Source: an uncultured Verrucomicrobiota bacterium (lineage in GTDB: Bacteria > Verrucomicrobiota > Verrucomicrobiia > Palsa-1439). From it: 64,000 nt of DNA. The notes under the pieces were generated by a model, which saw only the letters and a list, made by a program, of their open reading frames with translations, was not told the DNA's origin and did no database searches. Where the stretch lies: contig CAZHLM010000001.1 of NCBI GenBank assembly GCA_964533295.1, positions 112,498 to 176,497 on the forward strand, read 5' to 3'. The stretch's first letter is position 1. The number at the start of each line of letters is the position of its first letter. Shown here piece by piece: positions 7,011 to 62,108 of this stretch. The position numbers were made by a program, and so were the translations under genes.

Positions 7011-7150
7011 AATCCCTGTTTCAGCTTGCGCCTACTCGCCGGCTGCTTGGCTCGGGTCGATTCGCAAGCTCAGGAGTGGCGCTTGTCATTCAATGCCCCA
7101 CGGCAAGTTCAACGTGTGGGGTTGTTCACAGGCCCCGGCAAAGGAATTCC

Positions 7151-9793
7151 ATGGCTGCACAAATCAAATCTCTCAGCCTGCCTGTTCAGGGCATGTCATG
7201 CGCTTCGTGCGTTTCACATGTGGAGGGCGCGCTCAAGGAACTGCCCGGCGTTGAAAGCGTGGTCGTCAACCTGGGCACCAACAAGGCTGCGCTCAATTTT
7301 GATCCGACCCGGGTCACCCTGACCGACCTGGCCCGCGCGGTCGACGAGGTGGGATATCGGGTGCCGACCTCTGAACTGGCGCTAGACGTGCGCGGCATGA
7401 CCTGCGCCTCGTGCGTGGCCCATGTCGAAGGGGCGCTGAAGGGGGTCGAAGGGGTCACCGGGGCAGTCGTGAACCTGGGTCTGGGCACGGCCCGCGTCAC
7501 CTACATCCCCGGCCTGGTCTCGATCAACGCCATGAAGCGGGCCGTGCGCGAGGTCGGCTACGAAGCCCAGGAGCGAAGCGAAGGCGTCGACGCGCTCGAC
7601 CGCGAGCGGCAGGCGCGCGAGGCCGAGATCCGGCGCCAGGGCCGCAACCTGCTCATCGCCGGGCTGGTTGGCCTGGTCGTCATGATCGGCACTTTCTACG
7701 ACATGCTTGGCCCCCTTAAGGTGTTGGTGCCGGCGTGGCTGGCCCAGAAGTGGGTCATCGGCCTGCTGACCACGCCCATCGTCTTCGGCCCCGGTCTGCA
7801 GTTCTTCGTCAACTCTTGGCGAGGGCTTAGGCACGGCGTGACCGACATGAACCTGCTGTACGCCACCGGCATTGGCGCCGCCTACGGCATCGCCGTCATC
7901 AACACCCTCTTCCCGGAGGCCGGCTTCGGGGGTGAGGGGGCCACCTTCTTCGAGAGCGCCGCCCTGCTGACGGCCTTCATCATCCTCGGCCGCTGGCTGG
8001 AGGCCCTCACCCGCGGGCGCACGTCCGAGGCCATCCGCAAGCTCATGAAGCTTCAGCCCAAGATCGCGCGCGTCGTCCGGGATGGAAAAGAACTGGAGAT
8101 CCCGGCGGAGGAGGTCGAGATCCACGACTTGATCCTGGTCCGCCCGGGCGAAGGCATCCCCGTGGACGGCCAGGTCGTCGACGGCTATTCCGCCGTCGAT
8201 GAGTCGATGCTGACCGGCGAGAGCCTGCCGGTGGAGAAGAAGGCCGGCGACCTCGTCATCGGCGGGACGCTCAATAAGACCGGCGCATTCCGCTTCTCGG
8301 CGACCCGCGTGGGCAAAGAGACGGCCCTGGCCCAGATCATCAAGCTGGTGGAGGACGCCCAGGCCAGCAAGGCGCCGATCCAGAAGCTGGCGGACTGGGT
8401 GGCCGGGCACTTCATCCTGGGCGTTCACGTGCTGGCGGTGCTGGTCTTCGTCTTCTGGTTCTTCTACGGCTTTGGGCGCTTCTTCGACCCGAATTCCAGC
8501 TTCATCCTCTCACCCTACAAGCTGGGCGAGATCGGCGTGTTCGGGTTCTCGCTCCTGCTGTCGGTGACGGTGCTGGTGATCTCCTGCCCGTGCGCCGTCG
8601 GCCTGGCCACCCCGAGCGCGATCATGGCTGGCGCCGGCAAGGCCGCCGAGCACGGCGTGCTCTTCAAGGGCGCCGAGGCCATCGAGAACGCCAGCAAGCT
8701 GCAGGTGATCGTCTTTGACAAGACCGGGACCCTCACCCAGGGCCAGCCGAGCGTGACGGATGTCGTGGTCAGTGATCAGTGGGCAGGGGTCAGTAACTCT
8801 GATCACTCTCCACTACCCACTGACCACCTGCTCCGCTACGCGGCCAGCGCCGAGAAGCACAGCGAGCATCCGCTGGGCGAGGCCATCCTCAAAGGAGCGG
8901 AGGCACGCGGCCTGACGCTGCCCACGCCCGAACAGTTCATTTCGATCCCCGGGCATGGCGTCGAGGCCCGAATTGAAGGCCGCGCCGTTCTGCTGGGCAA
9001 CCGCAAGCTGATGCGCGAGCGCGGCGTGGACTTCGGCGCGTTGCTGACGAGGGCGGAGGCACTGGAGGCCGATGGCAAGACGGCCATGTTCCTGGCCGTG
9101 GACGGCGCGCCGGCCGGCCTGATCGCCGTGGCCGACACGCTCAAGGAGTACTCGGCCGAGGCGGTTGCGCACCTGCACCGGCTGGGCATCCAGGTGGCCA
9201 TGATCACGGGTGACAACGCCCGCACCGCGCAGGCGATCGCCCGGCAGGTGGGCATCGACCGGGTGCTGGCGGAAGTCCTGCCCCAGGACAAGGCCGAAGA
9301 AGTCAAGAAGCTCCAAGCCGCCCCCGCTGGAAAGCGCGGGGCAGGCGGCCACAAGGTGGCCATGGTCGGGGATGGCGTCAACGATGCGCCGGCCCTGGCC
9401 CAGGCCGATGTCGGCCTGGCCATCGGCTCCGGGACCGACGTGGCCAAGGAAACCGGCGACGTCATCCTGATCAAGGACGACATCCGCGACGTGGTCGTGG
9501 CCCTGGAAGTGGCCCAGGCCACCATGCGCAAGGTCAAGCAGAACCTGTTCTGGGCCTTCGTCTACAACCTGCTGGGCATCCCGCTGGGGGCCGGGCTGTT
9601 CTACCCCTTCGTGTCGCTGATCATCAGCCCGGAGCTGGCCGGCCTGATGATGGCCGTCAGCTCGGTCTCGGTCACCCTGAACACGTTACTCCTCAAGCGC
9701 TTCCGGCCATCCATCCGCCGCGACGATGCGCCCTGGCCAGGCCCCCGCCAGGCACACCCAGGCCTGGCGCCGGCGCCAGCCAGCGGCGACTGA
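7151..9793 (+). CDS. copA: copper-translocating P1B-type ATPase with two N-terminal HMA domains
   Basis: two GMSCASC/GMTCASC HMA motifs, CPC TM motif ([11 protein letters not shown]), [21 protein letters not shown], MxxSS; AAGGA ribosome-binding site before the ATG at 7151. Confidence 0.9.
8765..8827. repeat. palindromic mini-element (terminal inverted repeats GTGGTCAGTG / CACTGACCAC) inserted in frame within copA1
   Basis: sequence gtggtcagtgatcagtggg ... cccactgaccac adds about 10 aa ([19 protein letters not shown]) between DKTGT and SEHP compared with the copA3 paralog. Confidence 0.6.
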
Positions 9794-9830
9794 CGCCGGA
9801 CTCACCCATGTACAAGGAGCTAGGCTCCCG

Positions 9831-10955
9831 ATGAAACGCGTTGTAATCTTTTCCTTCATTGCGGTCCTGGCGATCCTGATATCCGCCTGCAGCGGCCCCG
9901 CCGTGGTGGCGCCGGCAACCCAGGCCGCGCCAGTCGCGCCCACCATGGATCCCAACATGCCTGGCATGGACATGGGAGAGGGGCAGACGTCCACATTGGA
10001 GCCAAATTTGGACGAGATGCCGGGTGCCGGCATGGACGTCATGACCATGGAGGCCCCCATCCCCAGCCTGGGCGTACCGCCGGCGACCGAGACGGAGGGC
10101 GGCCAACCGCTGGCGTACACGCTGGACGGCGACGTGAAAGTCTTCCAGCTGACGGCCCAGCCGGTGCGCTGGAACATCCTCCGGGACGTCGTGGTGACCG
10201 CCTGGACTTACAACGGCACCGTGCCCGGGCCCATGATCCGGGTCAGCGAGGGCGACCAAGTCCGCGTCATCGTGAAGAATGAATTGCCGGAGGCGACCAG
10301 CATCCACTGGCACGGCCTGCCGGTGCCCAACGCCATGGACGGCGTGCCGCCGTTCACGCAGCCGGCCATTGAACCGGGCGAGACCTTTACGTATGAGTTC
10401 ACGGCGGCGCCGGCCGGCACGTTCATGTACCACTCCCACGTGGCCACGGACAAGCAAATCCCGGTGGGCCTGTACGCGCCGCTGGTGATCGAGCCCAAGG
10501 ACCCGCCCACGGACCCGCCCGCCGTCGACGAAGTTCTGATGCTGGGGGAATGGACGATTGGCCCGGACGGCGAGACCTATCCTTCCATGCCGATGGCCGG
10601 GGCCGAGCCGAACTACTTCACCGTCAACGGCAAGGCCTTCCCCGAGACCAAGCCGGTCACGGTCAGAGTGGGTGACGTGGTCCGTCTGCGCCTGGCCGCC
10701 ATTGGCCAGTTCACGCACCCCATGCACCTGCACGGCCAGTTCTTCAAGATCGTGGCGACGGATGGCAACCCGGTGCCCGAGGCCGCGCAGCTGACGAAGG
10801 ACACCGTCGCCGTCAATCCGGGCGAGCGCTACGACATCGAGTTCACGGCCACGAGCCCGGGGACGTGGGTCCTGCACTGCCACGTCCTGCATCACGTCAC
10901 CAACAACGACGTCGAGCCGGGCGGGCTGATTTACGTGATCAACGTCCAGCCTTAA
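9831..10955 (+). CDS. multicopper oxidase with Met-rich N-terminal region
   Basis: lipoprotein-like signal; HWHG, YHSH, HPMHLHG and HCHVLHH copper-ligand motifs; MDPNMPGMDMGEG / MPGAGMDVMTMEA Met-rich stretch; AAGGAG ribosome-binding site. Confidence 0.85.
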   Translation: MKRVVIFSFIAVLAILISACSGPAVVAPATQAAPVAPTMDPNMPGMDMGEGQTSTLEPNLDEMPGAGMDVMTMEAPIPSLGVPPATETEGGQPLAYTLDGDVKVFQLTAQPVRWNILRDVVVTAWTYNGTVPGPMIRVSEGDQVRVIVKNELPEATSIHWHGLPVPNAMDGVPPFTQPAIEPGETFTYEFTAAPAGTFMYHSHVATDKQIPVGLYAPLVIEPKDPPTDPPAVDEVLMLGEWTIGPDGETYPSMPMAGAEPNYFTVNGKAFPETKPVTVRVGDVVRLRLAAIGQFTHPMHLHGQFFKIVATDGNPVPEAAQLTKDTVAVNPGERYDIEFTATSPGTWVLHCHVLHHVTNNDVEPGGLIYVINVQP

Positions 10956-11023
10956 TCCAGGCTGTCTGACTTCCCGGAGGCTCCGCAGTCGGGGCTTCTG
11001 GGGCAACTGAAGGAGAGGCCCAC

Positions 11024-11245
11024 ATGGAACACGAGCAGGTCGAGAAAGACGTGGCGCGCCGGAGCGCCCTGATTTACCTGCCGATCTCGATCGGCGCCGC
11101 GCTGCTGTTTCTGCTGGCAGCCAGCCTGAGCGGTGACTACCCGAGCGTGGCCCGGTTCGGCGGCGCGGTCTGGGTGGGGCTGCTCAGCCTGATCGTCACG
11201 ATGCCGGTCGTCACGGCGCGCATCAAAAAGGCAGCCCGGCACTGA
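11024..11245 (+). CDS. small membrane protein, hypothetical
   Basis: 73 aa, two predicted TM helices. Confidence 0.3.
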   Translation: MEHEQVEKDVARRSALIYLPISIGAALLFLLAASLSGDYPSVARFGGAVWVGLLSLIVTMPVVTARIKKAARH

Positions 11246-11293
11246 GAGCAGCGGGTTGGCCCGGCCGGAATTTTTGGAGAAAGGAGGACTGCC

Positions 11294-11500
11294 GTGAGAC
11301 AGCGCTTCAGTCGTCATTCCGATGAGATGCTGCTGGCATTCGCCGTCTGGCTGTGCAGCCTGCCGCTGGTGGCAATCGTCATCCTTCCCCTCTTCGGCCT
11401 GAAAGTCGCGGCCATCGCGGCGCTCGTCTTGTTCCTGATCTTGCTGGCGGTCTGCTGGGGCGTTTGCGGGTGGCAGGCCGTCACCAGTCGGAGGCGTTGA
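11294..11500 (+). CDS. small membrane protein, hypothetical
   Basis: 68 aa, two hydrophobic helices; GGAGG-like ribosome-binding site upstream. Confidence 0.3.
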   Translation: MRQRFSRHSDEMLLAFAVWLCSLPLVAIVILPLFGLKVAAIAALVLFLILLAVCWGVCGWQAVTSRRR

Positions 11501-11502
11501 GG

Positions 11503-12546
11503 GTGCTCGGCGCGGTGTCACGGAGTGTTCTTCCTGAAGTCGTCAGCGACGAGCGCGCACTGATCGCTCATCTGAGCGAGGCCGTCGGGAGAGCCGGGAT
11601 CCAGGTGGACGCAGTTCCGCTGATCAACTACTACGTGGCGTTGAAGTCAAAGCCGCTGACGATCCTGGCCGGCCCGGCGGACAGCGGCAAGATCGCGGTG
11701 GCCGAAAGCCTGGGCCACCTCTTGACCGGGGGCGCCAGGCTGCAATACCAGCGGCTGGTCGGCCACCCCTGGTGGGCGAGCCAGAGTGAGAGTGTGGCGC
11801 TCTGCACCACGGCCCAGTCGCAGCTCAACGCCAGCAAAATCCTGGCGCTGGCCGAAGAGGCGATACAACCCGAGAACGGCAGCCGGGTCTATCTCGCTTG
11901 TCTGGCCCGCATCAGCCCGGCAGAGGTGGTGGGATTGCTGGAGGAAATTGCGCTGCAATTCCGGGCCGGCAGACTCGTGAGCCTGTCTGGTCTCTCCCTA
12001 GTCAACCCGATCCGCTTCCCGGCTAACCTGTGGCTGACGGCGACGGTGGATACAGACCGATCTGGCTGGGCCAGCGCCCAAACGTTTTCGCACGCCACGG
12101 CGGTCTATTGGCCGGCCGTCGCCTCCAGGTCTGGCGAGCTCAGGCGACCCGCCTCACAACTCGTTGGGGCTGAGCAGTTATTCCTCCGCGCCTGCATCCG
12201 GGATACGCGTGCGGCCCGGCGAAAGCTCCGCCGTGTCCTGGGCGCCTGGCCGGCCGCCTTTTCCGCGCTGGCACAGGTCACGGCAGTCTTGAGAAACATC
12301 CGGGAGGGCATCGCCTCGTTTCTTGGCGACGTGCTTGTGTTCCTGGCGAATGCCTGGACGAACACCGGGCATGGGCTGTTCGACGCCGCGCCAAAAGGCA
12401 ATCTGGCGATTGCCACCGACCTGGCTCTGGCGCAATTGCTCCTGCCGCGGCTGACCTTGAGCCCTTCCCTGCGCCGTCAGCTTCGCAGCCTGCTGGTGGG
12501 TAGCCAGTACTCGATTGCGGCCGCTGCGCTGGAGAGTTTTAGCTAA
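11503..12546 (+). CDS. P-loop (Walker A-like AGPADSGK) protein of unknown function
   Basis: GTG start immediately after the upstream stop; LTILAGPADSGKIAV motif; no further family assignment possible. Confidence 0.35.
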   Translation: MLGAVSRSVLPEVVSDERALIAHLSEAVGRAGIQVDAVPLINYYVALKSKPLTILAGPADSGKIAVAESLGHLLTGGARLQYQRLVGHPWWASQSESVALCTTAQSQLNASKILALAEEAIQPENGSRVYLACLARISPAEVVGLLEEIALQFRAGRLVSLSGLSLVNPIRFPANLWLTATVDTDRSGWASAQTFSHATAVYWPAVASRSGELRRPASQLVGAEQLFLRACIRDTRAARRKLRRVLGAWPAAFSALAQVTAVLRNIREGIASFLGDVLVFLANAWTNTGHGLFDAAPKGNLAIATDLALAQLLLPRLTLSPSLRRQLRSLLVGSQYSIAAAALESFS

Positions 12547-12607
12547 CGGAGACGCAGGGCTGACCATGCGGTTCGCCGTCCCGTTCACGCCCAAAAGGTT
12601 ATTTGAC

Positions 12608-13405
12608 ATGATCACAATCAGCATTGACCCGGTTCTCTTCAGTATCGGCCATTTCATGGTGCGCTGGTACAGTCTCATCGTCGTCGGGGCCATTGGCGTT
12701 GGCGTCTGGCTGGCAGCGCGCGAGGCCGGGCGCAAGGGCTTTAAGATGGATGAGATCTATGACGCCGCGCTGGGGGTCGTCCTGGGCGGCCTGCTCGGCG
12801 CGCGGCTCTTCCACGTGCTCGACCACTGGCCGCACGAGTACGCGGCGGACCCAGTTCGGGCGCTGTATGTGTGGGAGGGCGGGCTGGCGATCTGGGGCGG
12901 CGTGGCCGGCGGCCTGCTCGCCGTCGCCTGGCTGGCCTGGCGCCGGGGCTGGCCCCTGCCGCGCCTGCTCGATGCGGTGGCGCCGGGCCTGGTCCTGGCG
13001 CAGGCGGTCGGCCGCCTGGCCTGCATCATCACGGGCGATGCGATGGGTAAGCCCACGACCGGGCCATTCGGATTTGCGTACACCAGCCCGAACGCCATGG
13101 TGCCTCAGCTGGGCGTGTATTACACCCCGACGCCGGTGTATGAGATCGTCGTCAACCTGGGCATCTTCGCCGTCCTCTGGCAACTGCGCAAGAAAGGCTG
13201 GCCCGATGGTTTGCTCTTCCTCCTCTATGTGGTGCTATATAGCCTGGAACGGTTCCTGCTGGCCTTTACCAGTTCCTACCAGGTGATCGCGTTCGGGCTG
13301 ACTCAGTCCCAGATCGTCGCGCTGATCGCCCTGGCTGCTGCTCTGCCGCTCATCACCTGGATCCTGGCCCGCACGAGCCGATCCAGCCGAGCGCACGCCG
13401 GTTGA
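12608..13405 (+). CDS. lgt: prolipoprotein diacylglyceryl transferase
   Basis: FSIGHFMVRWYSLIVVGAIGVG N-terminus, GARLFHVLDHW and WEGGLAIWGG motifs characteristic of Lgt. Confidence 0.8.
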   Translation: MITISIDPVLFSIGHFMVRWYSLIVVGAIGVGVWLAAREAGRKGFKMDEIYDAALGVVLGGLLGARLFHVLDHWPHEYAADPVRALYVWEGGLAIWGGVAGGLLAVAWLAWRRGWPLPRLLDAVAPGLVLAQAVGRLACIITGDAMGKPTTGPFGFAYTSPNAMVPQLGVYYTPTPVYEIVVNLGIFAVLWQLRKKGWPDGLLFLLYVVLYSLERFLLAFTSSYQVIAFGLTQSQIVALIALAAALPLITWILARTSRSSRAHAG

Positions 13406-13498
13406 TTGACGGGCTTCACACGGTTTTCGGGAAGGCTTCACAAGTTCTTCACATGGCTCGGCTAGGGTAACGCATAGAAAGGATCTTCGGAGGTCAAC

Positions 13499-13870
13499 AT
13501 GAGCAAAGGTCTGCAATGGGTCCTCGGCGTCAGCGCCGTTCTGATCGTCGTCGCGGTCGTTGCTTCGACCGTCCTGCCATTCTTCTTCCATCAGACCGCC
13601 TGGGGCGGGTGGCAGGGGATGATGGGCCCAGGCCACATGTTCGGAGGTGCTCCTATGATGGGTGGTTTCGGAATGCCGTTCTTCGGTCTGGGGATGCTGC
13701 TGGGGCCGCTGCTGTTCGTCGGCCTGATCGTGCTCGGCGTCGTCTGGCTGGTCCGTGCGGTGGCGCCGCAGTCTCCGCCGCCCGCTCCTGTCGGCGTGAC
13801 CTGCGCCCACTGCGGCAAGCCGCTCCAGGCCGGCTGGAAGGCCTGTCCCTACTGCGGCGAGAAGGTCTGA
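13499..13870 (+). CDS. membrane protein with Met/Gly-rich periplasmic loop and C-terminal CxxC...CxxC zinc ribbon
   Basis: GMMGPGHMFGGAPMMGGFGMPFFG segment; CAHCGKPLQAGWKACPYCG; sits directly upstream of the two-component pair. Confidence 0.5.
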   Translation: MSKGLQWVLGVSAVLIVVAVVASTVLPFFFHQTAWGGWQGMMGPGHMFGGAPMMGGFGMPFFGLGMLLGPLLFVGLIVLGVVWLVRAVAPQSPPPAPVGVTCAHCGKPLQAGWKACPYCGEKV

Positions 13871-13938
13871 GCGAGGTCTCTTCTCCACAGACGAGCCGGA
13901 GCAAAGCCGCTCCGGCTCGTTTGATATACACTTCCAGT

Positions 13939-14619
13939 ATGGCCCAGACCATCCTCGTCGTGGACGACGAAGCCCAGATCGTGAAGGTCTTGCGCGGCTA
14001 CCTGGAGCAGGCCGGCTTCCGCGTGGTCACGGCCAGTGATGGGCCGACCGCCCTGGCCCAGGCCAAACGCGAAAAGCCGGACCTGGTACTCCTGGACCTG
14101 AGCCTCCCAGGGTTAGACGGCCTCGACGTCGCCCGGCGCCTGCGGGCCACATCCAACGTGTCCATCATCATGGTGACGGCGCGGGTCGAGGAGTCCGACC
14201 GCCTGGTCGGGCTGGAACTGGGTGCCGATGACTACGTCGTCAAGCCCTTCAGCCCGCGCGAGGTGGTGGCCCGCGTGCGAGCCGTGCTCCGGCGGACAGA
14301 AGCGCCGAGCGTCCCACAGATCATCCGGGCGGCCGACATCACCATCGACCTGACGCGGCACACGGTCGCCCGCAGCGATGACTCCATTGAGCTGACGCCG
14401 ACGGAGTTCGATCTGTTGGTTACGCTGGCGCGCGAGCCGGGCCGCGTTTTCACCCGCATGCAGTTGCTCGACGCCGCCCAGGGTGAGGCGTTTGAGGGCT
14501 ACGAGCGCACCGTGGACGCCCACATCAAGAACCTGCGCGCCAAGCTCGAACGTGATCCCAGGCAGCCCGAGTACGTCGTGACCGTGTTCGGCGTGGGTTA
14601 CAAGTTCGCAGACGGCTGA
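13939..14619 (+). CDS. OmpR/PhoB-family response regulator
   Basis: receiver domain (ILVVDDE, LVLLDLSLPGLDG) and winged-helix C-terminus (VFGVGYKF). Confidence 0.85.
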   Translation: MAQTILVVDDEAQIVKVLRGYLEQAGFRVVTASDGPTALAQAKREKPDLVLLDLSLPGLDGLDVARRLRATSNVSIIMVTARVEESDRLVGLELGADDYVVKPFSPREVVARVRAVLRRTEAPSVPQIIRAADITIDLTRHTVARSDDSIELTPTEFDLLVTLAREPGRVFTRMQLLDAAQGEAFEGYERTVDAHIKNLRAKLERDPRQPEYVVTVFGVGYKFADG

Positions 14620-14691
14620 GAGCGGTCACGGGCCACGAGTACGGTCTTCACCCTCCGCGATCAGCCATCAGCCATTCGCGATCAACCAGCC

Positions 14692-16095
14692 ATGCGTCTC
14701 TTCGCCAAGCTCTTGCTCTCTTTCCTGGCCGTTGTCCTGGTAGGCGTGGCCGTGGTGTCGCTGCTGGCCAACCAGGCGGCGGCCAGCGAGGTGCACAGCT
14801 TCATGTTCCAGGGCGGCATGACGAGCGACGCCGGCCTGGCGCAGGAGTTGGCAGGCTACTATCGTGGTCGTGGCTCCTGGGAGGGCGTCCAGACACTGGT
14901 GAGCGCCGGTCTGGGGATGGGCGGCATGGCGGGGATGATGGGCCAGCAGCTCCTCGTCGCCGATGCGCGCGGCCAGGTCGTGGCCGACTCCGCCGGCCAG
15001 CGCGTAGGCCAGACCCTGAGCCAGGCCGAACTGTCAGGCGGCACCGCCATCGTCGTCGACGGCCAGCGCGCCGGCACGCTCGTCGCCGTGGGCGGCATGG
15101 GGATGGGCGAGATCAGGGGTGGCCCGGGGCAGGCTGACAGCGCCACGAACGATCTGTTAGGGCGCGTCAACCGGGCCATCTGGCTGGCGGCACTGGCGGC
15201 GGGCGGCGCTGCTCTCGTGGTCGGCGGCATTTTGGCCTATGGCCTCGTTCGACCGATCCGGCGCCTCATGGCTGCGACGGCCGTCATCGCCCGCGGCGAC
15301 CTGGCCCAGCGTGTCCCGGTCACGTCTCAAGATGAAATCGGCGACCTGGCGGCCGCGTTCAACGCGATGGCGGCCGACCTGCAGAAGGCTGAGCGCCTGC
15401 GGCAGGACATGATCGCGGATATTGCCCATGAGCTGCGCAACCCCCTGGCGGCCCTGCAAGGCAGCCTGGAAGCGGTGGTCGACGGGGTGCTGCCGCCCAC
15501 CCAAGAGACCCTGGCGCCGCTGCTCGATCAGACGCAATTGCTCGCGCGGCTGGTGAGCGACCTGCGCACGCTGGCCCTTGCCGACGCCGGGCAACTGCCT
15601 CTGGATCGCCTCTCCATGAACCCCGCGGATCTGGTCCGGTCGGTGGTCGCCCAATTCACGCCCCAGGCTCAAGCCAAGCACCTCACCCTGCGCGCCGATA
15701 TTCCTGTCAGCCTGCCGACCCTCTCGCTCGATCCCCAACGCATCGCCCAGGTCCTCGGCAACCTGCTCGGCAATGCCATTCGTCACACGCCCGCAGGGGG
15801 AGTGATCAGTGTTCAGGGTTCAGTATCCAGTGAGCGCCCGGAAATCACTCTGAACACTGGGCACTATTTACGGATCACTGTTACTGACACCGGCTCCGGT
15901 ATCCCGCCTGAGGCTGTGCCGCATGTCTTCGACCGCTTCTATCGCGTCGACCGCGGGCGCTCGCGCAGCGAAGGCGGGACCGGCCTCGGCCTGGCCATCG
16001 CCAAACAACTGGTGCAGGCGCACGGCGGGCACATCTGGGTGACCAGCCAGCCCGGCCAGGGCACGCAAGTTTCGTTTACCCTGCCTCTCAACTGA
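14692..16095 (+). CDS. sensor histidine kinase (periplasmic Met/Gly-rich sensor, HAMP, HisKA, HATPase)
   Basis: IADIAHELRNPLAAL H-box, DTGSGIP and GGTGLGLAI G-boxes; sensor loop with GMGGMAGMMGQQ. Confidence 0.85.
   Translation: MRLFAKLLLSFLAVVLVGVAVVSLLANQAAASEVHSFMFQGGMTSDAGLAQELAGYYRGRGSWEGVQTLVSAGLGMGGMAGMMGQQLLVADARGQVVADSAGQRVGQTLSQAELSGGTAIVVDGQRAGTLVAVGGMGMGEIRGGPGQADSATNDLLGRVNRAIWLAALAAGGAALVVGGILAYGLVRPIRRLMAATAVIARGDLAQRVPVTSQDEIGDLAAAFNAMAADLQKAERLRQDMIADIAHELRNPLAALQGSLEAVVDGVLPPTQETLAPLLDQTQLLARLVSDLRTLALADAGQLPLDRLSMNPADLVRSVVAQFTPQAQAKHLTLRADIPVSLPTLSLDPQRIAQVLGNLLGNAIRHTPAGGVISVQGSVSSERPEITLNTGHYLRITVTDTGSGIPPEAVPHVFDRFYRVDRGRSRSEGGTGLGLAIAKQLVQAHGGHIWVTSQPGQGTQVSFTLPLN
15802..15890. 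repeat. palindromic mini-element of the CAGTGA/TCACTG family inserted in frame within the kinase ATP-binding domain
   Basis: gtgatcagtgttcagggttcag ... actctgaacactg ... cactgttactgacac; stem cagtgttcagggt pairs with actctgaacactg; encodes ISVQGSVSSERPEITLNTGHYLRITVTD. Confidence 0.55.
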
Positions 16096-16165
16096 TCCAC
16101 TCCGCCTTCAACGGCCAAAATCATAAGCCATTTCGCCTGTTCCACACTAGGTCGATTAGCGCTTT

Positions 16166-16220
16166 CCAAATGCCCGCCGGTGGATACACTTCTATGTGTG
16201 CCTAGTAGTTGGGCATTTGG
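16166..16220. promoter_or_regulatory. 10-bp perfect inverted repeat CCAAATGCCC ... GGGCATTTGG flanking a 35-nt lower-GC spacer upstream of copA2
   Basis: read directly; lies 24-78 nt upstream of the copA2 start. Confidence 0.3.
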
Positions 16221-16243
16221 ATTCTGAGAGAAAGGCTCATCTT

Positions 16244-18925
<2,682 letters not shown>

Positions 18926-18975
18926 TCATGGGTAATTGGTGATTGGTGATGGTTGATTGAAGACCGCAATCAACC
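18926..18975. repeat. tandem heptamer (TGATTGG) tract plus hairpin GGTTGATTG-aagaccg-CAATCAACC immediately after the copA2 stop
   Basis: read directly; a related ATCAGCC/ATCAACC tract at 14650-14691 precedes the kinase start. Confidence 0.4.
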
Positions 18976-18995
18976 ATCAGCCATGGAGAGATGCT

Positions 18996-19376
18996 ATGAC
19001 TCCCGATAAAATCCTTGTCATCCTGGGCGGGCTGGCCGCCATCGCCTTCATCGTCTGGTTTTTCTGGCTGGGCGAGAAGAAGGGTGTGAAAGCTGCACTG
19101 ACCAGCGGCGGCTATCAGGAAGCTATGGTGCTGGTCAAGGGTGGCTACACCCCGGACGTGATCGTGGTTGAGAAGGGCAAGCCGGTGCGCCTGAATTTCG
19201 TCCGGACCGAGTCGGCCTCGTGCTCCGAAATGGTGCTTTTCCCGGACTTCAAGAAGAGCGCCAAGCTCCCAGAAGGTGAGACCGTACCGGTAGAATTCCT
19301 GCCCGACAAAGCCGGCGAATACGAGTTCCAGTGCCAGATGGGTATGCTTCGGGGCAAGCTGATCGTTGAGGAATGA
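18996..19376 (+). CDS. membrane-anchored cupredoxin-like domain protein
   Basis: N-terminal TM helix; C-terminal EFQCQMGMLRGKLIV resembles cupredoxin_1-type domains commonly linked to copA; GGAGAG ribosome-binding site. Confidence 0.55.
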   Translation: MTPDKILVILGGLAAIAFIVWFFWLGEKKGVKAALTSGGYQEAMVLVKGGYTPDVIVVEKGKPVRLNFVRTESASCSEMVLFPDFKKSAKLPEGETVPVEFLPDKAGEYEFQCQMGMLRGKLIVEE

Positions 19377-19380
19377 GACG

Positions 19381-20262
19381 ATGGCAGTGGTGTCGCCGAG
19401 TCGCCTCACCTTCAGGCGGCCACCGATAATGGGCCCGGCCGGTCCGCCTCCAGCGCTCCACGTCTGCGAGGCCGGCCCGCCGGGCCGCACCCTGGTGTTC
19501 CTCCCCGGCCTGGGCGGGACGACCCGCTACTGGCAGGGGCGTCTTGGCGTGCTTGAGCAGAAGTATCATGCCGTCCTGGTGGATCCGTTGGGCTTCGGCG
19601 AGTCGCCCAAGCCCTGGACACGTTACACCGTCGAGCGGCACGTTCAGGCACTGCACCAGGCCCTCAGCCGGATGGCGCCTTTCACACTGGTGGGCCACTC
19701 GATGGGAGCCTTGCTGGCAGTCGCCTACGCCGCCCGTCATCCCGCCGACGTGGAGGGCCTGGTGCTGTTGGGGTTGCCGAATTTCGGGAGCCCGGAGAAG
19801 GCCTTCCGCTTCTTCCGCAAAGGCTCCTGGGTCAATCGCGTGTTTCTCTCGAACATGGTGCTGGCCGCGGTCATCTGCGTCTTGACCCGGCGCGTCTTCG
19901 CCTGGCTGGTGCCGTACTTGCAGCCCGAACTGCCGCGCGAGGTCGCAGCCGACGTCGTCCGGCACTCCTGGCGGTCGTTCACGTCATCGCTGTGGGAGGT
20001 CGTGTACAACTGTGACACCGCCCGAGACGCGGACAGGCTCGACCGCCGCCTGCCCGTCGTCTGCCTGCACGGCGATCGCGACATCACAGCCCCGCTGGAG
20101 GGGCTTCTGGCCCTGGTGCAGGGCCGCCCCAACTGGCGCGTGCGGGTCCTGCCCGGCGTGGACCACCATCCGCTGCTGCACGCCCCCGCTGAATGCTACC
20201 GGGCGATTGAGGCAGTGACACGGCGGGAGGAGCTGGGACCACAAGAAGCAGAGCTGGTTTGA
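19381..20262 (+). CDS. alpha/beta-hydrolase fold protein
   Basis: GHSMGALLA nucleophile elbow (GxSxG); HGDRD and DHHPLLH consistent with a catalytic triad. Confidence 0.7.
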   Translation: MAVVSPSRLTFRRPPIMGPAGPPPALHVCEAGPPGRTLVFLPGLGGTTRYWQGRLGVLEQKYHAVLVDPLGFGESPKPWTRYTVERHVQALHQALSRMAPFTLVGHSMGALLAVAYAARHPADVEGLVLLGLPNFGSPEKAFRFFRKGSWVNRVFLSNMVLAAVICVLTRRVFAWLVPYLQPELPREVAADVVRHSWRSFTSSLWEVVYNCDTARDADRLDRRLPVVCLHGDRDITAPLEGLLALVQGRPNWRVRVLPGVDHHPLLHAPAECYRAIEAVTRREELGPQEAELV

Positions 20263-20357
20263 TCTCTGGCGCCTGAACGAGAGACGACTCGGTCCCATCC
20301 CGCTGGCTGAGGAAGACCGGCGCCTCGAACAGCCCCGACTACGAATCGGAGGGCAGC

Positions 20358-22311: not shown

Positions 22312-22377
22312 GAAAGCGCCGTTCCCCGGAAGGCTACGCCGATTGGCGTATGCCCCACCAGGCGGAACGGCGCTTTC
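22312..22377. promoter_or_regulatory. nested palindrome: outer 14-bp inverted repeat GAAAGCGCCGTTCC/GGAACGGCGCTTTC enclosing TACGCCGATTGGCGTA
   Basis: read directly; lies between the YVTN gene and the DUF2933 gene; could be a terminator/attenuator or a binding site. Confidence 0.3.
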
Positions 22378-24660: not shown

Positions 24661-24812
24661 TCCCGAAGATCCGCACGAGCCCTCATCTGGGCTTAATCTC
24701 CCCCTCCGCCAAATGGCGCATTCTCAAACAGGCTAAACGCCTCTCACAGTTTTCGTCCCGCCCCGCTAGAGTCATCCTTGAAGCCAGACACCGATACCAA
24801 GGAGTGACTCAT

Positions 24813-33750: not shown

Positions 33751-35302
33751 GGTGTAAATGGATTGAGTGCAACCTGAAGGTGCCAGAGTTTAGTCAGTGG
33801 TCGTGAGCTCGCTCCTGAAAGTCAGAAACGACATCATGTGAAGCGCCGCGCCCACAGCCGGCGAGCGCGCCCGCAGGCCGGGCCCCGGTCAAGGTGGAGC
33901 GAGCGCGCGAGCTGGGCCGCCCCCTGGGGCGGCGCGCGCTCGACGACCTTGACCGGGTGGCCGGAGGGTGCCGCCTCGCGCGGCGGGCGCCGGCGCGAAC
34001 CGGTCAGCGCACAGGCGCCAAGGCCGGAGCAATCATGAGCGCGCCCGCGTGCGGGTCCAAAAGCCGCTGCATGCTCGCTTGGCTGAAGTAGCGGCGCTCA
34101 ATGGCCCACTCGTCCGCCAGTTCCAACAGGACCATGCCGGTGAGACGCAGCACGGCCGGGTCATTCGGAAAGACCTGCACCACGTCCGTGCGGCGCTTGA
34201 TCTCCCGATTGACGCGTTCTAAGACGTTGGTGGAATAGAGCCGGGTCCAGTGTTCGGGCGGGAACGTCAGATAGGCCAGTACATCGTCTTCGGCCGTCCG
34301 TAACAGCGCGGCGGCTTTGGGCCAGCGCGTCTGCATCCCGCGCGCCACTTCGGCCAGCTGTTGACCAGCCGCCTCCCGATTGGGCTGGGCAAAAATCGTG
34401 CGGACCAGGGCCGCCACGACGGCCTTATCGGCGTGCGGGATATGGGCCAGCAGATTGCGCATAAAGTGCACGCGACAGCGCTGCCAGGTGGCCCCGGTCA
34501 AGACCTGAGCAATGGCCGCTTTCAGGCCTTCGTGGGCGTCACTAATGACTAACTGAACGCCGGCCAGACCTCGACCGACGAGACTACGCAAAAACTCGCT
34601 CCAGAAGGCTTGTTCTTCGCTCGCTCCCAACGCCAGGCCCAACACCTCGCGTTCGCCGGTCTCTCGCACACCGACCGCCACCACCAGGGCTTTACTGACA
34701 ATCCGCTGATTGGCACGTACTTTCACGTAGACCGCATCTAGCCACATATAGGGATAGGCCCCGCTCAAAGGTCGTTGCCGAAAGGCCGTCACTTGCTCAT
34801 CGAGCCCCTGGCACAGGCGCGACACCTTGGACTTGTCGATCCCACTCAGGCCGAGGGCTTGCACCAGATCGTCCACTTTGCGGGTGCTCACCCCGGCCAC
34901 ATACGCTTCTTGAATGACGGCCACCAGGGCCTGCTCCGTCCGCCGACGCGGCTCCAGCAAGCTTGGAAAGTAACTCCCCTGGCGGAGTTTGGGGATCCGT
35001 AACTGGAGTTCCCCCACGCGCGTTTCCAACGGCCGTTCGCGATAGCCGTTGCGCTGGGTGGTGCGCGCCGGGCTGCGCTCGTACTTCCCCGCCCCAATCT
35101 GCTGTTCGGCTTCCAATTCGATCAACTGCTGCAGTAGCCACTCCAACGCCGGCCGCAGGGCCTCCCCATCCAACGTCAGGCCCATCTTGCGTAGGTGCTC
35201 ATTCAGTGCGATAGTCAATTCGGTCATCGGGTGCTCCTGTTGCGATGTGGTAGTCACTTCAGGTAGCACTCGATGACTCGTTTTGTCAAATCCGATTTAC
35301 AC
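33751..35302. mobile_element. IS256-family insertion sequence
   Basis: transposase gene flanked by imperfect inverted repeats GGTGTAAATGGATTGAGTGCAACCTGAAG (left) and revcomp GGTGTAAATCGGATT ... GAGTGCTACCTGAAG (right); no clear target-site duplication. Confidence 0.65.
34004..35227 (-). CDS. IS256-family (Mutator-type) transposase
   Basis: 407 aa with the DDE region of IS256 transposases (YMWLDAVYVKVR ... LVISDAHEGLKAAI ... RCRVHFMRN). Confidence 0.85.
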   Translation of the reverse strand: MTELTIALNEHLRKMGLTLDGEALRPALEWLLQQLIELEAEQQIGAGKYERSPARTTQRNGYRERPLETRVGELQLRIPKLRQGSYFPSLLEPRRRTEQALVAVIQEAYVAGVSTRKVDDLVQALGLSGIDKSKVSRLCQGLDEQVTAFRQRPLSGAYPYMWLDAVYVKVRANQRIVSKALVVAVGVRETGEREVLGLALGASEEQAFWSEFLRSLVGRGLAGVQLVISDAHEGLKAAIAQVLTGATWQRCRVHFMRNLLAHIPHADKAVVAALVRTIFAQPNREAAGQQLAEVARGMQTRWPKAAALLRTAEDDVLAYLTFPPEHWTRLYSTNVLERVNREIKRRTDVVQVFPNDPAVLRLTGMVLLELADEWAIERRYFSQASMQRLLDPHAGALMIAPALAPVR

Positions 35303-35939: not shown

Positions 35940-36180
35940 TAGACCCACCACACGAGTTTCCGAGGGTGGACACAATCCAGTTGCTGGATGATGTCTCGCG
36001 GTAACTGGACAAGCAGAGCGTGCGCGTGGCCGCTGTGTATGACGGTGCCAACTACCTGGGTTTGATCAGCTTGGAAGGTATCGCTGAAACGCTGGCTGGG
36101 ATGTTTGGGCGGCGCCGGAAGCGGCTTCGCCAGATGCCGGCCGGCACATCATCGCCCGTGCCCGGCAACGGAGTGCAGTG
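35940..36180 (+). pseudogene. CBS-domain gene remnant with in-frame TAA
   Basis: [42 protein letters not shown] reads as a CBS domain interrupted by a stop; no start or N-terminal part; adjacent to the IS256 element. Confidence 0.3.
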
Positions 36181-36182
36181 AG

Positions 36183-38708
36183 ATGAAGACGACAGTCATC
36201 TTTCTGGAAGGCATTGAGTCCGTGCTTTCGCCGGCCGGGGTCGAGAAGCAGTTGTGCCGGCATCCCGGCATCCACAAGGTTGAAACGAACTTCATGACGG
36301 GCACGGCCACCGTCTACCATGACGAGTCGGTGCCGCTGGCGGAGATCAAGCGTTACGTGGCCGAATGTGGCTACGCCTGCTCAGGTGAGTGCCTGCCACA
36401 GCACGTGACCCAGCCGGGCGATCCGCCAATGGAAATGGCGCACGCCGGCCATGCGATGCGCGACGCCGGAGCTGGAGAACACGCCAGGCCTGAGATGCGC
36501 GCACATGTCGGGCACGTGATGCCGGCGTCTGAACATGACGCCCATGCCGGCCACGCCATGCCGACGGCGAAAGCGCCCGCCACAGCCGAGGCCCATGCCG
36601 GGCATGAGACACCGGCACTTGCGCCCGGTGCAAGTGTGGCTGCGGCCGGCGAAATGGAAGCTATGGCTCACGAGATGGGCCACGGCGCGGGAATGAGCAT
36701 GGAGGCCATGGTGCGTGACATGCGCAACCGCTTCCTGGTTGCGTTCGTCCTCGCCATCCCCGTCTTCCTGTACTCGCCGCTGTTTACCGACTTTTTCCAG
36801 GTTCAGCTGCCACTTCCATTCGGGCTATCAAATGAAGCGCTGTCGTTTCTGCTCGCCACACCCGCCGTGCTGTACAGCGGCTGGGTCTTCTATATCGGCG
36901 CATGGCGCGGGCTGAAGAATGGGGTACTGAACATGGCCGTGCTGGTCACGCTCTCGGTATTGGCCGGATACATCTTCAGCGTCGCCGCCACGTTCCTGTT
37001 TGAAGGTGAAGTCTTCTACGAGGCCGCGGTGCTGCTGCTGGCCTTTGTGCTCTTCGGCCACTGGATGGAGATGCGCGCCCGCTCCGGCGCGTCGCAGGCC
37101 ATTCAGGCGTTGATGAACCTCGCGCCGCCGAAGGCCACCGTCATCCGCGGCGGGCAGCAGGTCGAAGTTCCGACTTCGGAAGTGCTGCTGGACGACGTCG
37201 TCCTCATCCGACCCGGCGACAAGATCCCGGTGGACGGCGTAGTCATCGAGGGCGAGTCGAGTGTGGACGAGTCCATGCTGACGGGCGAGAGCCTGCCGGT
37301 GAAGAAGGCTGTCGGCTCCAGCGTCGTTGGCGCGACGATCAATAAGACCGGCGCGTTCAAATTCCGCACCACCAAAGTGGGCGCGGATACTGCCCTGGCG
37401 CAGATCGTCAAGCTGGTGCAGGTGGCGCAGAACTCGAAAGCACCCTCGCAGCGGCTGGCGGACCGGGCTGCGCAATGGCTGGTAGCCGCCGCCATCGTCT
37501 TCGGACTGGCGACGTTTTTCGGCTGGTATTTCTTTGGCGGGTCGGCCATCCCGCCGGGAGTGGACAGGACGGTGTGGGCCCTGACGCTCGCCATCACGGT
37601 CGTCGTCATCGCCTGCCCTGATGCGCTCGGGTTGGCCACGCCCACGGCGGTGATGGTGGGCACCGGCCTCGGCGCGCAGAACGGCATCCTGTACAAGAAT
37701 GCCACCGCGCTGGAAGAGGCAGCCAAGTTGCAGGCCATCATCTTCGACAAGACCGGCACGCTCACCGAGGGCAAACCCCAGGTGGTTGAAATCGTGGCAT
37801 CGGGCAACCCGCTCACCGAGGCCGACCTGTTGCGGCTGGTCGCCTCGGCGGAGCAATCATCCGAACACCCGCTGGCCCAGGCCATCGTGGAAAAAGCCAA
37901 GGCGCAAAACGTGAAGCTGGAAGACGCGGGTGGCTTTGAGGCCATCCCCGGCCACGGCATGAAGGCGGTAGTCGCTGGCCGGACTCTGCTGGTAGGCAAC
38001 CGCAAGCTGATGCGTGACAACCAGATCGCACTCAATGAACTGGGAGAGCGCGCCGCCTCCCTGGAAGGCGCGGGGCGCACGGTGGTATATGCCGCTGCGG
38101 ATGGCCAATTCGTCGGGCTCATCGCCATCGCCGACGCGGTGCGGCCCAACGCCCGGCTCGCCGTCGAGAAGCTGACCAGCATGGGCGTACAGGTTGCCAT
38201 GCTCACCGGCGACAATCGTGCCACCGCTGAACGTATCGCGGGCGAGCTCGGTATCCAGACCGTGTTCGCCGAAGTGCTGCCGGGCCAGAAAGCTGACAAG
38301 GTGAAGGAGCTGCAATCGCAGGGGAAGCTGGTGGCGATGGTGGGCGATGGCATCAACGACGCCCCGGCGCTGGCGCAGGCCGACGTGGGCATCGCCATCG
38401 GCGCGGGCACCGACGTGGCGATGGAGACCGCCGACGTGGTGCTGATGAAGTCCGATCCGTTCGACGTGATTGGTGCCATCACGCTCAGCCGGGCGACGTT
38501 GAGCAAGATGCACCAGAATCTGTGGTGGGCAGCGGGTTACAATACCATTGCCTTCCCCATTGCCGCCGGCTTGTTCTACCCGGCCTTCGGGCTGATCCTG
38601 CGCCCCGAAATTGCCGCCATCTCGATGTCGGGTTCGTCTCTGCTGGTAGCGGTCAATGCCTTGATGCTAAAGAACACGAAGCTGGAAGGCATCCGGGCCA
38701 AAGCATAA
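36183..38708 (+). CDS. P1B-type heavy-metal ATPase with cysteine-free HMA-like N-domain, His/Met-rich stretch and CPD TM motif
   Basis: [10 protein letters not shown] ... [20 protein letters not shown] ... [25 protein letters not shown] instead of [26 protein letters not shown] and MSGSS. Confidence 0.85.
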
Positions 38709-41663: not shown

Positions 41664-41925
41664 CTGTCAGGACGCTATCTTCAATTCAGTAGTTTGGGCC
41701 GATCCGATTGGAAAGCTGAGCCAACGCTCTATTACCATGCTGGCGTTCTCCGGCCTGATGGCCCGTTTGAGGTGAATTCAGTGGAAGGGTGGATCCTCTT
41801 GCGACATGCGCCGTTAAGCCCGTTCCAACGTGCGCCATTTGGCTCTTTCGGCCTTCATCCCCAACTCCTAAACTGAGGAGAGTTGTTGTTCATCCCTGAC
41901 GCGCGCGTCTCACGGGAGGCGGTTT

Positions 41926-44329: not shown

Positions 44330-44470
44330 CGAACCGCCGCTCTCCTGTTCGAAATCAGCCGCGCGCCATTTCGCCTGTGCCCGAACACGCCGCTTGGCGC
44401 TTGAAGTCCGCCCCCCCGCGCCCTACGATACAGAGGGGTAGCCCCATCGTCATGGACGGAGGGCTGACCA

Positions 44471-49470: not shown

Positions 49471-49756
49471 TCCCCTGGCGCTGCTCGATCAGCGACGATG
49501 CTGCTGGAGACCAGGGCGGTTTTCTGTGATGAGTTCGGCATTTTATTTCCGATAATCAAATTTATCATTTAGTTGTGCCTAAATTAACGGCTTGCCGCGA
49601 ACTCGTCAATACGCCATTCCGCGTGCTCGACGCGGCCCGGTCGCCTGCAACAGCGGCGGGTAGATCAACACGCCATTGTGCCTGTTTGAAAACCGGCTAA
49701 ACGGCGCTAACGCTATCAGGCTGTGCGGCTTACCATGGTAAGCGATTGGATCGGCT

Positions 49757-60880: not shown

Positions 60881-62017
60881 TCAGCCAATCCGTTTCTTGA
60901 AGCGTAAGGCGGAAATCGCGACCAGCCCCGCCGCGTAGAGCGCCAGAAAGCCCATGGCCGGGGCGATGGTCTCAAGTCCTTGTCCCTTGAGCGCGATGGC
61001 GCGCGAGATATCAATGAAGTAACGCGCTGGGAAGACATTGGCATAAGCCTGCATCGGCGTTGGCATGGTGTGCACCGGGAAGATGAAGCCGGAGAATAGC
61101 ATCGCGGGCATGATGGTTAGCACGATGGCGAGCAGCATCGCCGCGACCTGGGTGCGGGCGAGGGTCGAGACGAGCAGGCCAATGCCGACAGTGCAAAGCA
61201 CGTACAACGTCGCGGCCATGAGGAATAGCGGCAGGCTGCCGCGGAACGGGACGCCGAACCAGAACACGCCGCCCGTCAGTACCAACAGCATTTCGAGGAA
61301 GGCAATCACGCCATAAGGGATCAGTTTGCCGAGCACCAATTCGACCGGGCGAATGGGTGAGACGTAGACTTGCTGGATCGAGCCGCGTTCCTTCTCACGC
61401 ACGATGGCCAGCGCCGAAAGCAGCGGTGGGAAGGCCATCAGGATCACGCCGAACAGGCCGGGCACAGTCGAATTCACGCTCTCCAGCGTCGGGTTGTAGC
61501 GCACGCGGGCATTGACCGCGACCGGCCCGGATTGATCCAGCGTTTGCCCCGTCCGGCTTTCGACAAACTCGGCCAGCACGCGCCCGCCGTAGGCGGCGTT
61601 GATGGCGTTGACGTAGGCTTGCGTCACCTGGGCAAAGGGCGTGTAGGAACCGTCGAGCAGAGTCTGGGCCTCGGCAGTCCGGCCTGCGCTGAGGGCGGCG
61701 CCAAAACCGGGCGGGATCACCAGGGCCACATCCGCCGTGTCGCGGCCCAGCGCCTCCGCAATAGCGTCGTAATCGTTCACCGCGCCGGCGATGCGGAAGT
61801 AGCCGGAGTTGACGAACGCCTGCGCGTACGCGCGGCTGGCGGCGGTGCGGTCGAGATCGAGCAAGATCATCTGAATGTTCTTGACATCCGTGTTCACGCC
61901 GTAGGCGAACAGGAAGAGCATGATGAGCGGCAGCACCAGCGCGATGCCGAGCGTGTACGGGTCGCGCAGGATTTCGCGGCTTTCCTTGCGCAGGACGGCG
62001 AGGGTACGGGTAAACAT
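60881..62017 (-). CDS. ABC-2 family transporter permease
   Basis: same architecture as its neighbour; start at MFTRTLAVLRKE; the upstream extension in the ORF track is encoded by the repeat element. Confidence 0.8.
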   Translation of the reverse strand: MFTRTLAVLRKESREILRDPYTLGIALVLPLIMLFLFAYGVNTDVKNIQMILLDLDRTAASRAYAQAFVNSGYFRIAGAVNDYDAIAEALGRDTADVALVIPPGFGAALSAGRTAEAQTLLDGSYTPFAQVTQAYVNAINAAYGGRVLAEFVESRTGQTLDQSGPVAVNARVRYNPTLESVNSTVPGLFGVILMAFPPLLSALAIVREKERGSIQQVYVSPIRPVELVLGKLIPYGVIAFLEMLLVLTGGVFWFGVPFRGSLPLFLMAATLYVLCTVGIGLLVSTLARTQVAAMLLAIVLTIMPAMLFSGFIFPVHTMPTPMQAYANVFPARYFIDISRAIALKGQGLETIAPAMGFLALYAAGLVAISALRFKKRIG

Positions 62018-62018
62018 A

Positions 62019-62108
62019 GTGGTCAGTGGACAGCGAGCAGTGATCAGTGCGCAGTGATCAGTGGGTAGTCTCGAAGGGATGCTTCGCAGTGAGCAGAGTT
62101 TGATCACT
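62019..62108. repeat. 90-bp palindromic element (terminal inverted repeats GTGGTCAGTG / CACTGACCAC) at the ABC ATPase/permease junction
   Basis: arms cagtgatcagtgggtagtc and gactacccactgaccactg are reverse complements; encodes the last 17 aa of the ATPase and abuts the permease start. Confidence 0.6.

Follow-up and report, generated by a model that had tools for sequence, protein, structure and literature searches.

The 64,000-nucleotide (nt) stretch of DNA analysed here (the window; positions 112,498 to 176,497 of contig CAZHLM010000001.1, from an assembly assigned to an uncultured Verrucomicrobiota bacterium) carries four hairpin-forming arrays of degenerate 7-nt units built on the tetranucleotide CAGT, one of which lies in frame within a sensor histidine kinase gene. 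The gene (14692-16095, plus strand) encodes a BaeS/CusS-like protein of 467 amino acids (aa) with HAMP, HisKA and HATPase_c domains assigned by Pfam; its element, designated c2 (15802-15890, plus strand), supplies codons V371 to T400, between the N box (NLLGNAIRHT) and the G1 box (DTGSGI) of the ATP-binding domain. Our interpretation, to which we give a probability of roughly two in three (~0.65), is that c2 is an old and partly decayed copy of a dispersed hairpin repeat, selfish or neutral, that is tolerated in a permissive loop. The dispersal of the copies, their variable presence in close relatives, a decay series among orthologues, the fast divergence of the encoded peptide and the surface position of the lengthened segment all support this interpretation. 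A preliminary description of the locus had pointed to a hairpin-forming repeat in frame in an intact kinase gene, and this holds: the sequence, stem and translation that it quoted for c2 are all present, the Pfam domains and catalytic residues are in place, and the kinase's own frame is free of stops.

Heptamer architecture

The general plan of the element is (NNNCAGT)n - loop - (ACTGNNN)n. In c2, the 5' arm (15802-15831) reads GTGATCAGT GTTCAGG GTTCAGT ATCCAGT, the 12-nt centre (15832-15843) is GAGCGCCCGGAA, and the 3' arm (15844-15890) consists of degenerate ACTG-type units in inverted order; adjacent heptamers are never identical, and the translation includes ...VISVQGSVSSERPEITLNTGHYLRITVTD. 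The stem, CAGTGTTCAGgGT / ACtCTGAACACTG, has perfect 10-bp arms at 15807-15816 and 15850-15859 and is extended by an outer pairing of AGTGATC (15801-15807) with GATCACT (15873-15879). The G+C content of c2 is 49%, compared with 64.7% for the window, and all four elements fall between 44 and 56%.

Taken by itself, the c2 stem is weak evidence and not unusual. Perfect 10-bp inverted repeats with loops of 45 nt or less give 36 overlapping matches in ~18 places of the window (7.2 ± 3.4 in first-order Markov controls), and the RNA fold of c2 has a z-score of -2.4, with 4 of 200 shuffles folding equally well. The 7-nt CAGT periodicity, on the other hand, is far beyond chance. Pairs of the form CAGT...CAGT or ACTG...ACTG number 11 at spacing 7 and 9 at spacing 14, as against 0-3 at every other spacing tested (controls: mean 1.3, maximum 4). 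All 11 spacing-7 pairs are confined to four clusters (8765-8827, 15802-15890, 17996-18058 and 62019-62128), and there are none in 1.33 Mb of sequence from 75 unrelated loci, most of them in high-GC genomes; distant kinases from a scan of genome contigs with the kinase served as negative controls here. (That scan yielded one close kinase orthologue only, L001; its remaining matches are distant kinases.)

These figures bear directly on the notion that there is no element at all, and that ordinary β-hairpin codons (VISV ... ITVTD) merely happen to be self-complementary. It is true that the end motifs fall on native strands, that the fold z-score is modest and that 10-bp inverted repeats are by no means scarce in the window, but chance does not readily account for a CAGT periodicity and a dip in G+C content that are limited to four loci, for near-perfect arrays at the same spot in orthologues, or for an element-free orthologue (L208, below) that has unrelated codons for the same strands and is shorter by exactly three heptamers. 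Coincidence is hardly credible as an explanation.

The other three copies all fold well. Copy c1 (8765-8827, plus strand; fold z -4.6), with ends GTGGTCAGTG...CACTGACCAC, lies in frame in the gene of P-type ATPase paralogue 1 (7076-9793). Copy c3 (17996-18058, plus strand; fold z -3.3) lies in frame in the gene of P-type ATPase paralogue 2 (YHS/HMA; 16196-18925), 3' of the kinase gene, and is the cleanest of all: NNNCAGT four times, then AAG, then ACTGNNN four times. These two copies occupy one shared alignment column of both ATPase paralogues, right after DKTGT(L/I)T.G.PS(V/L)TDV; the third P-type ATPase paralogue has no element at this column. Copy c4 (62019-62128; fold z -5.5) is situated between two ABC transporter genes of the minus strand: its right half encodes the final ~24 codons and stop of the ABC-transporter ATPase gene (62058-63989), and its left end is 1 base from the permease start codon (62015-62017). 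Thus three of the four copies, which range in length from 63 to 110 nt, are intragenic. The terminal inverted repeats GTGGTCAGTG ... CACTGACCAC are clear in c1 and c4, whose ends are common and whose 3' arms are identical at 25 of 28 nt, and are represented by degenerate versions in c2 and c3. None of the four copies is flanked by direct repeats that would constitute a target-site duplication; the bases just before or into their 5' ends (GTCG, GGAG, GTAG and ATAG) form no consistent tag; and a search of the whole window against Rfam at gathering thresholds returns no match. The assignment of c2 to one family with the ATPase copies, proposed in the preliminary description, stands as far as class is concerned, in that heptamer architecture and end motifs join it to those two copies and to the fourth at 62019; real kinship in sequence is apparent between c1 and c4.

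A three-heptamer array runs through all three reading phases, and TGA therefore turns up in each frame of an array made of perfect GATCAGT or ACTGATC units. Coding copies substitute variant units, for example ACTGTTT (providing a Cys codon) where ACTGATC would give TGA, and the peptides SVIS.Q and LITDHCL, generated by variant heptamers, recur in many orthologues. Copy c2 is stop-free in the kinase's own frame only, c1 and c3 each have one additional open frame, and c4 has none open. The TAACTGA repeats follow the same logic, with translations LITDN-stop in one orientation and LSVISYQ in the other (MacGregor 2015, PMC4679880). Stop codons also coincide with hairpins in two of the orthologous loci: in L082 (1500-1531) the TAA of the response regulator gene lies in the loop of a perfect hairpin, GTGAACAGTAAACTGTTCAC, and in L084 (4806-4830) an array of GATCAGT/AATCAGT units extends over the stop codon of a gene.

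Position in the protein

An AlphaFold model of the kinase, built from an alignment of 65 sequences (mean pLDDT 80), has a strand at residues 371-379, a loop at 380-391 and a second strand at 392-399. Its cytoplasmic part superposes on WalK/YycG, HK853 and CusS with target-normalised TM-scores of 0.7-0.9. Confidence drops between the strands: mean pLDDT is 57 for residues 381-390 as against 92-93 for the blocks on either side. The preliminary description had suggested structure prediction as a means of deciding whether the insert forms a surface loop, and in the model the additional residues, 380-391, do form the tip of a hairpin that precedes the G1 box. Strands 371-379 and 392-399, which are common to every kinase, are encoded by the outer heptamers (GTGATCAGTG... 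and ...ATCACTGTTACTGAC). Since the DNA arms coincide with the model strands, the two arms encode two antiparallel strands, and the centre of the palindrome (E381-E384) encodes the turn.

This arrangement alters the estimate of what was gained. An insertion of about 25 aa, at a place where kinases normally have a short loop, had originally been proposed; in fact the place is taken by a β-hairpin of ~21-24 residues from GG to D. The distance from GG to the G1 aspartate is 31 residues in the window kinase and 21-24 in the shortest, element-free orthologues, and the solved kinases VicK (4i5s) and WalK (5c93, 4u7n) show a 10-residue alignment gap exactly at the c2 site. As judged from these alignments, the net excess of c2 is 7-10 aa (21-27 nt). 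It is no larger because the outer heptamers encode two native β-strands; for the same reason the event looks like the replacement of a native hairpin rather than a simple insertion.

According to the model, c2 lengthens the tip of a surface β-hairpin and leaves the catalytic boxes untouched. The lengthened hairpin precedes G1 and is therefore outside the ATP lid, which lies between G1 and G2. The catalytic boxes are all intact in sequence, with the family-invariant residues H246, N357, N361, D399, G401, G403, F413, G431 and G433 present in the alignment. Homologues of the kinase number in the thousands; the closest ones come from Chloroflexota/Anaerolineales metagenome bins.

The same site in orthologues

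The DNA of orthologues was compared at ten loci, mostly syntenic for Lgt, a zinc-ribbon protein, the regulator, the kinase and an ATPase. The window gene, with its imperfect CAGT hairpin, has 132 nt from N box to G1. The same span is found in L209 (98.8% identical in nucleotides), whose element is identical to that of the window, and, with the same architecture in moderately clear form, in L081 (86% aa identity; fold z -2.8) and L082 (fold z -3.1). In L083, also at 132 nt, the arrays are near-perfect, TATCAGT GATCAGT G...CACTGATC ACTGATC ACTGTTT (fold z -4.6), and L084, at 162 nt, has seven consecutive CAGT-phased units (fold z -5.3). Worn elements in L085, L087 and L001 (135-138 nt; fold z 0 to -0.7) and, in L086, a 27-nt deletion derivative (105 nt; fold z -1.2) that retains GTGATCAG...CTGATCAC represent the other end of the range. 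In L208, whose kinase is 70% identical in amino acids and whose copper island is fully syntenic, the span is 111 nt and contains zero CAGT units: the same strands are encoded by unrelated codons, no palindrome is evident by reading of the (unfolded) sequence, and the loop is shorter than that of the window by 21 nt, exactly three heptamers. The ATPase loops of L208 are likewise without the element.

The recency of insertion that the preliminary description implied does not fit these comparisons, in which an element of equal length, partly decayed, occurs in orthologues at 86%, 70% and 62% protein identity. Copy c3 is a different case: the orthologous ATPase of L081, L082, L086 and L208 lacks it and has 11-16 unrelated residues where the window has 22, and c3 was therefore gained recently. 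The comparison of orthologous sequences accordingly dates the two copies apart, with c2 old and c3 a recent gain. On a neighbour-joining tree of the 65 orthologues with the loop removed, occupancy of the kinase loop by the element is patchy; the tree is rough and weakly resolved, and is probably too composition-biased to separate one gain followed by losses from several gains. Palindrome-free orthologues with loops as long as that of the window, which would speak against an insertion, are for the most part not encountered (21-24 aa against 31), although some orthologues that lack CAGT arrays do have loops that match or exceed it, at 28-55 aa (for example P0008, P0016, P0036, P0046 and P0120).

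Inserts of other kinds also occur at these places. In the kinases P0046 and P0120 the loop is extended by long inserts of another, repeat-like sort. In L086 (5892-6010), the orthologue of ATPase paralogue 1 (CopA-1) has, in the column of c1, a one-armed CCAACTN array, CCCAACT TCCAACT CCCAAAT CCCAAC, which encodes NPNFQLPNPN. At least the P0120 kinase loop and the L086 CopA-1 orthologue resemble heptamer repeats of another type.

Among element-bearing orthologues the GG-to-D length varies from 22 to 41 aa, and the corresponding DNA differs by 3 to 57 nt. Such variation, together with a unit length that is not a multiple of three and the run of seven phased units in L084, invites the thought of a contingency locus in which 7-nt slippage would shift the frame and switch the kinase on and off. 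It is very improbable that c2 works in this way: the window copy has no identical neighbouring heptamers and is thus not expected to slip often; orthologues differ in length by multiples of three only, as selection would leave them; and L209, at 98.8% identity, has preserved the element without change.

The central 13 encoded residues are 38% identical (by manual count on the alignment) to those of the orthologue whose overall identity is 86%, an indication that constraint on the encoded peptide is relaxed. A peptide that diverges so much faster than the rest of the protein, varies this widely in length, has low predicted confidence at its tip and is absent from close syntenic relatives is not what one expects of an adaptive protein feature, that is, of an extended hairpin that gives the ATP-binding domain a new surface for interaction or regulation, with the palindrome incidental. 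Retention in frame across lineages to about 62% protein identity and location at the domain surface are the points in favour of such a function, which we nevertheless regard as quite unlikely.

Arm complementarity is achieved through different sequences in different orthologues (ATCAG/CTGAT, TTCAG/CTGAA and AACAG/CTGTT). If a nucleic acid structure were the object of selection, whether in RNA, as a hairpin that makes ribosomes pause or the mRNA more stable, or in DNA, as a hairpin or cruciform, the peptide would be a by-product. Hairpins are significantly stable in five of nine orthologues; changes on both sides keep complementarity across lineages, with double changes in 6 of 13 consensus pairs; and c4 ends 1 base from a start codon, where TAACTGA repeats are most often reported to lie (PMC4679880). 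However, an RNAalifold consensus of eight orthologues is nearly devoid of shared structure (-4.5 kcal/mol; covariation term +0.8), and no conserved RNA motif is therefore claimed. The pairing register varies between orthologues, the fold is lost in four of them (z 0 to -1.2) and 27 nt are lost in one, with the genes still intact, and Rfam offers no match. Template-switch correction of quasi-palindromes could also preserve the arms without any selection. Selection for structure is, on balance, unlikely, if somewhat less so than a protein function.

Relation to known repeats and wider distribution

The Rickettsia palindromic elements (RPE), reportedly described by Ogata et al. in 2000, provide the nearest functional parallel. 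RPE are roughly 100-150 bp long, have family-specific consensus sequences, are not built of heptamers, and reside in obligate intracellular alphaproteobacteria. As with RPE, dispersed palindromic repeats are found here in frame inside functional genes, with copies also between genes; they are tolerated at surface-exposed, non-catalytic places; no associated transposase was found; and hairpins form, as judged by fold z-scores of -2.4 for the kinase copy and -3.3 to -5.5 for the other window copies. An in-frame surface position in an intact gene holds for the kinase; for the two ATPases the likeness extends to frame and position only. The elements described here differ in being modular arrays of 7-nt units, 63-110 nt long, in a free-living, high-GC host, and in that a native hairpin has seemingly been replaced, with the two arms mapping onto two β-strands. 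Thus the element works like an RPE, but membership of that group is implausible in view of its heptamer construction and its host. RPE are mentioned in PMC1779305 and PMC1458961.

In construction it is closer to heptamer repeats, of which the cyanobacterial STRR heptamers are comparable 7-nt examples. TAACTGA repeats have been reported from Beggiatoaceae, Cyanobacteria and Bacteroidetes, Chloroflexota not being among the taxa listed, and form direct tandem arrays of one exact unit, almost all of them intergenic, with a single inverted example (MacGregor 2015, PMC4679880). The elements of the window have in common with these and with STRR the 7-nt unit, the core ACTGA/TCAGT and the tandem periodicity, and with TAACTGA repeats also the translations (SVIS.Q; LITD..), the stop-codon logic and copies that abut starts (c4) or overlap gene ends. 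In contrast to the exact direct arrays, their units are degenerate (NNNCAGT), all different, and disposed in two inverted arrays; exact TAACTGA/TCAGTTA occurs four times in the window, never inside an element. Location is a mixed criterion: c4 lies 1 base from a start and most of the listed metagenome copies (below) are intergenic, yet three of the four window copies are within genes.

REPs are extragenic and have a conserved GTAG or CGTC tag (PMC3733652), and REP/REPIN elements are mobilised by RAYT transposases (PMC3116915, PMC3733652). Short imperfect palindromes in many copies, the absence of target-site duplication and the capacity of single strands to form hairpins are shared features; a GTAG/CGTC tag is not consistently present at the 5' ends of the four copies. 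Terminal inverted repeats are a feature shared with MITEs; the target-site duplication of a MITE is lacking. The element, then, is built like the TAACTGA/STRR heptamer repeats but lacks defining features of TAACTGA arrays, REPs and MITEs.

Metagenome contigs were scanned for CAGTNNNCAGTNNNCAGT, a spacer of 5-35 nt and ACTGNNNACTGNNNACTG, that is, for hairpins of 3 + 3 perfect units. At least 120 contigs contain them, with G+C contents of 35%-71% (mostly 55-66% among those listed). Most of the listed elements are intergenic, with stops in all frames or very short frames; 9 of 123 listed elements pass a filter for long open frames. Of 13 in-frame candidates that were inspected, most are probably spurious high-GC frames, and only one looked like a real gene (L177, with the element in frame in a 570-aa protein that has a Capsule_synth match). 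The metagenome data consequently say little about the frequency of in-frame copies. A literature search did not turn up a description of such elements in Chloroflexota or Anaerolineae, a negative that applies to the papers searched only.

Origin and maintenance

The favoured scheme, of c2 as a tolerated passenger, can be put as follows. A repeat composed of an NNNCAGT heptamer array and then an inverted ACTGNNN array would arise, or land, at many places, with most copies coming to lie between genes or at gene ends; within genes, only stop-free copies at structurally permissive places would survive. Copy c2 would occupy, and probably overwrote, the β-hairpin between the N-box helix and the G1 box, so that the hairpin gains 7-10 residues and a floppy tip while the ATP site and catalytic boxes are left untouched. 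The repeat would be selfish or neutral, without a role in kinase function; it may spread by a hairpin- or single-stranded DNA-based route that leaves no target duplication; and imperfect heptamers may be kept since perfect ones would give rise to stops and to frame-shifting slippage.

Several facts sit uneasily with this scheme. No transposase, target-site duplication or donor copy was identified, RAYT having been looked for only among the few annotated genes of the window, and mobility is therefore deduced from presence and absence of copies only. Simple insertion does not account for an element that seems to have taken the place of native sequence, and the empty sites in L081, L082, L086 and L208 likewise show replacement. 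One and the same column is occupied in two ATPase paralogues, and the kinase loop is occupied patchily, a hint of targeting or of repeated regeneration in addition to a filter of selection. Finally, arms that are complementary through different sequences could signify selection on the hairpin, although, as already mentioned, quasi-palindrome correction by template switching could keep them complementary without it.

A more far-reaching proposal is that CAGT-heptamer hairpins form a class of DNA carried on hairpins that is widespread among Anaerolineales-like bacteria and others of soils and sediments and has so far gone undescribed. Such hairpins would overwrite native sequence at the same surface β-hairpins and loops time and again, being either targeted to these sites or regenerated there. 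The proposal is doubtful. If it were true, the two DNA arms would become the antiparallel strands and the palindrome centre the turn; the elements would in effect be an intrinsic source of in-frame hairpin extensions, in which template switching or selection keeps the arms complementary.

Genomic neighbourhood and other repeats in the window

The gene of the cognate OmpR-type response regulator (13939-14619, plus strand) is directly 5' of the kinase gene, and regulator-kinase synteny is kept in L081, L082, L083, L086 and L208. Both belong to a copper or heavy-metal island (7076-20300 and 36105-38708) that comprises three P-type ATPase paralogues with HMA/YHS domains, a multicopper oxidase (9726-10955), Lgt, a zinc-ribbon protein, the kinase/regulator pair and a cupredoxin-like gene; its gene order is the same in L086 and L208.

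Other repeat-like sequences are scattered through the window. An isolated fragment, TTTAGTCAGTGGTCGTGAG, that resembles one c1/c4 end is located in a low-GC intergenic stretch (33780-33807). The spacer between the ATPase and cupredoxin-like genes (18925-18985) contains a heptamer hairpin of a second kind, with a core that differs from CAGT; it reads GGTAATT GGTGATT GGTGATG GTTGATT G-aagaccg-CAATCAACCATCA and has perfect 10-bp arms (from 18947-18950 to 18967-18970). An intergenic motif, GCCATTTCGCCTGT...(about 13 nt)...GGCGCTT, is found at 16127-16164 (directly after the kinase stop codon), 44365-44402, 24708-24739 (minus strand), 41812-41847, 22338-22375 and 49672-49705, as an exact 14-mer in two copies and more loosely in the others. 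With 3 mismatches allowed it gives 16 matches, which is not clearly above chance (shuffle mean 8.2; 4 of 100 shuffles reach 16); the motif may represent a regulator site or a further small repeat.

Implications

Segments of this kind give rise to local dips in G+C content, odd peptides (SVIS.Q, LITDHC) and alignment gaps, and annotators and structure predictors should treat them as repeat-derived. In-frame palindromic repeats have been known mainly from Rickettsia; here the same outcome is reached with a different modular block, the CAGT heptamer, in a free-living, high-GC bacterium. The orthologues furnish a time series of one site, fresh, worn, deleted and absent, and this makes it possible to test how such a repeat enters a gene, why it recurs at the same loops, and whether the link between a DNA palindrome and a protein β-hairpin goes beyond coincidence.

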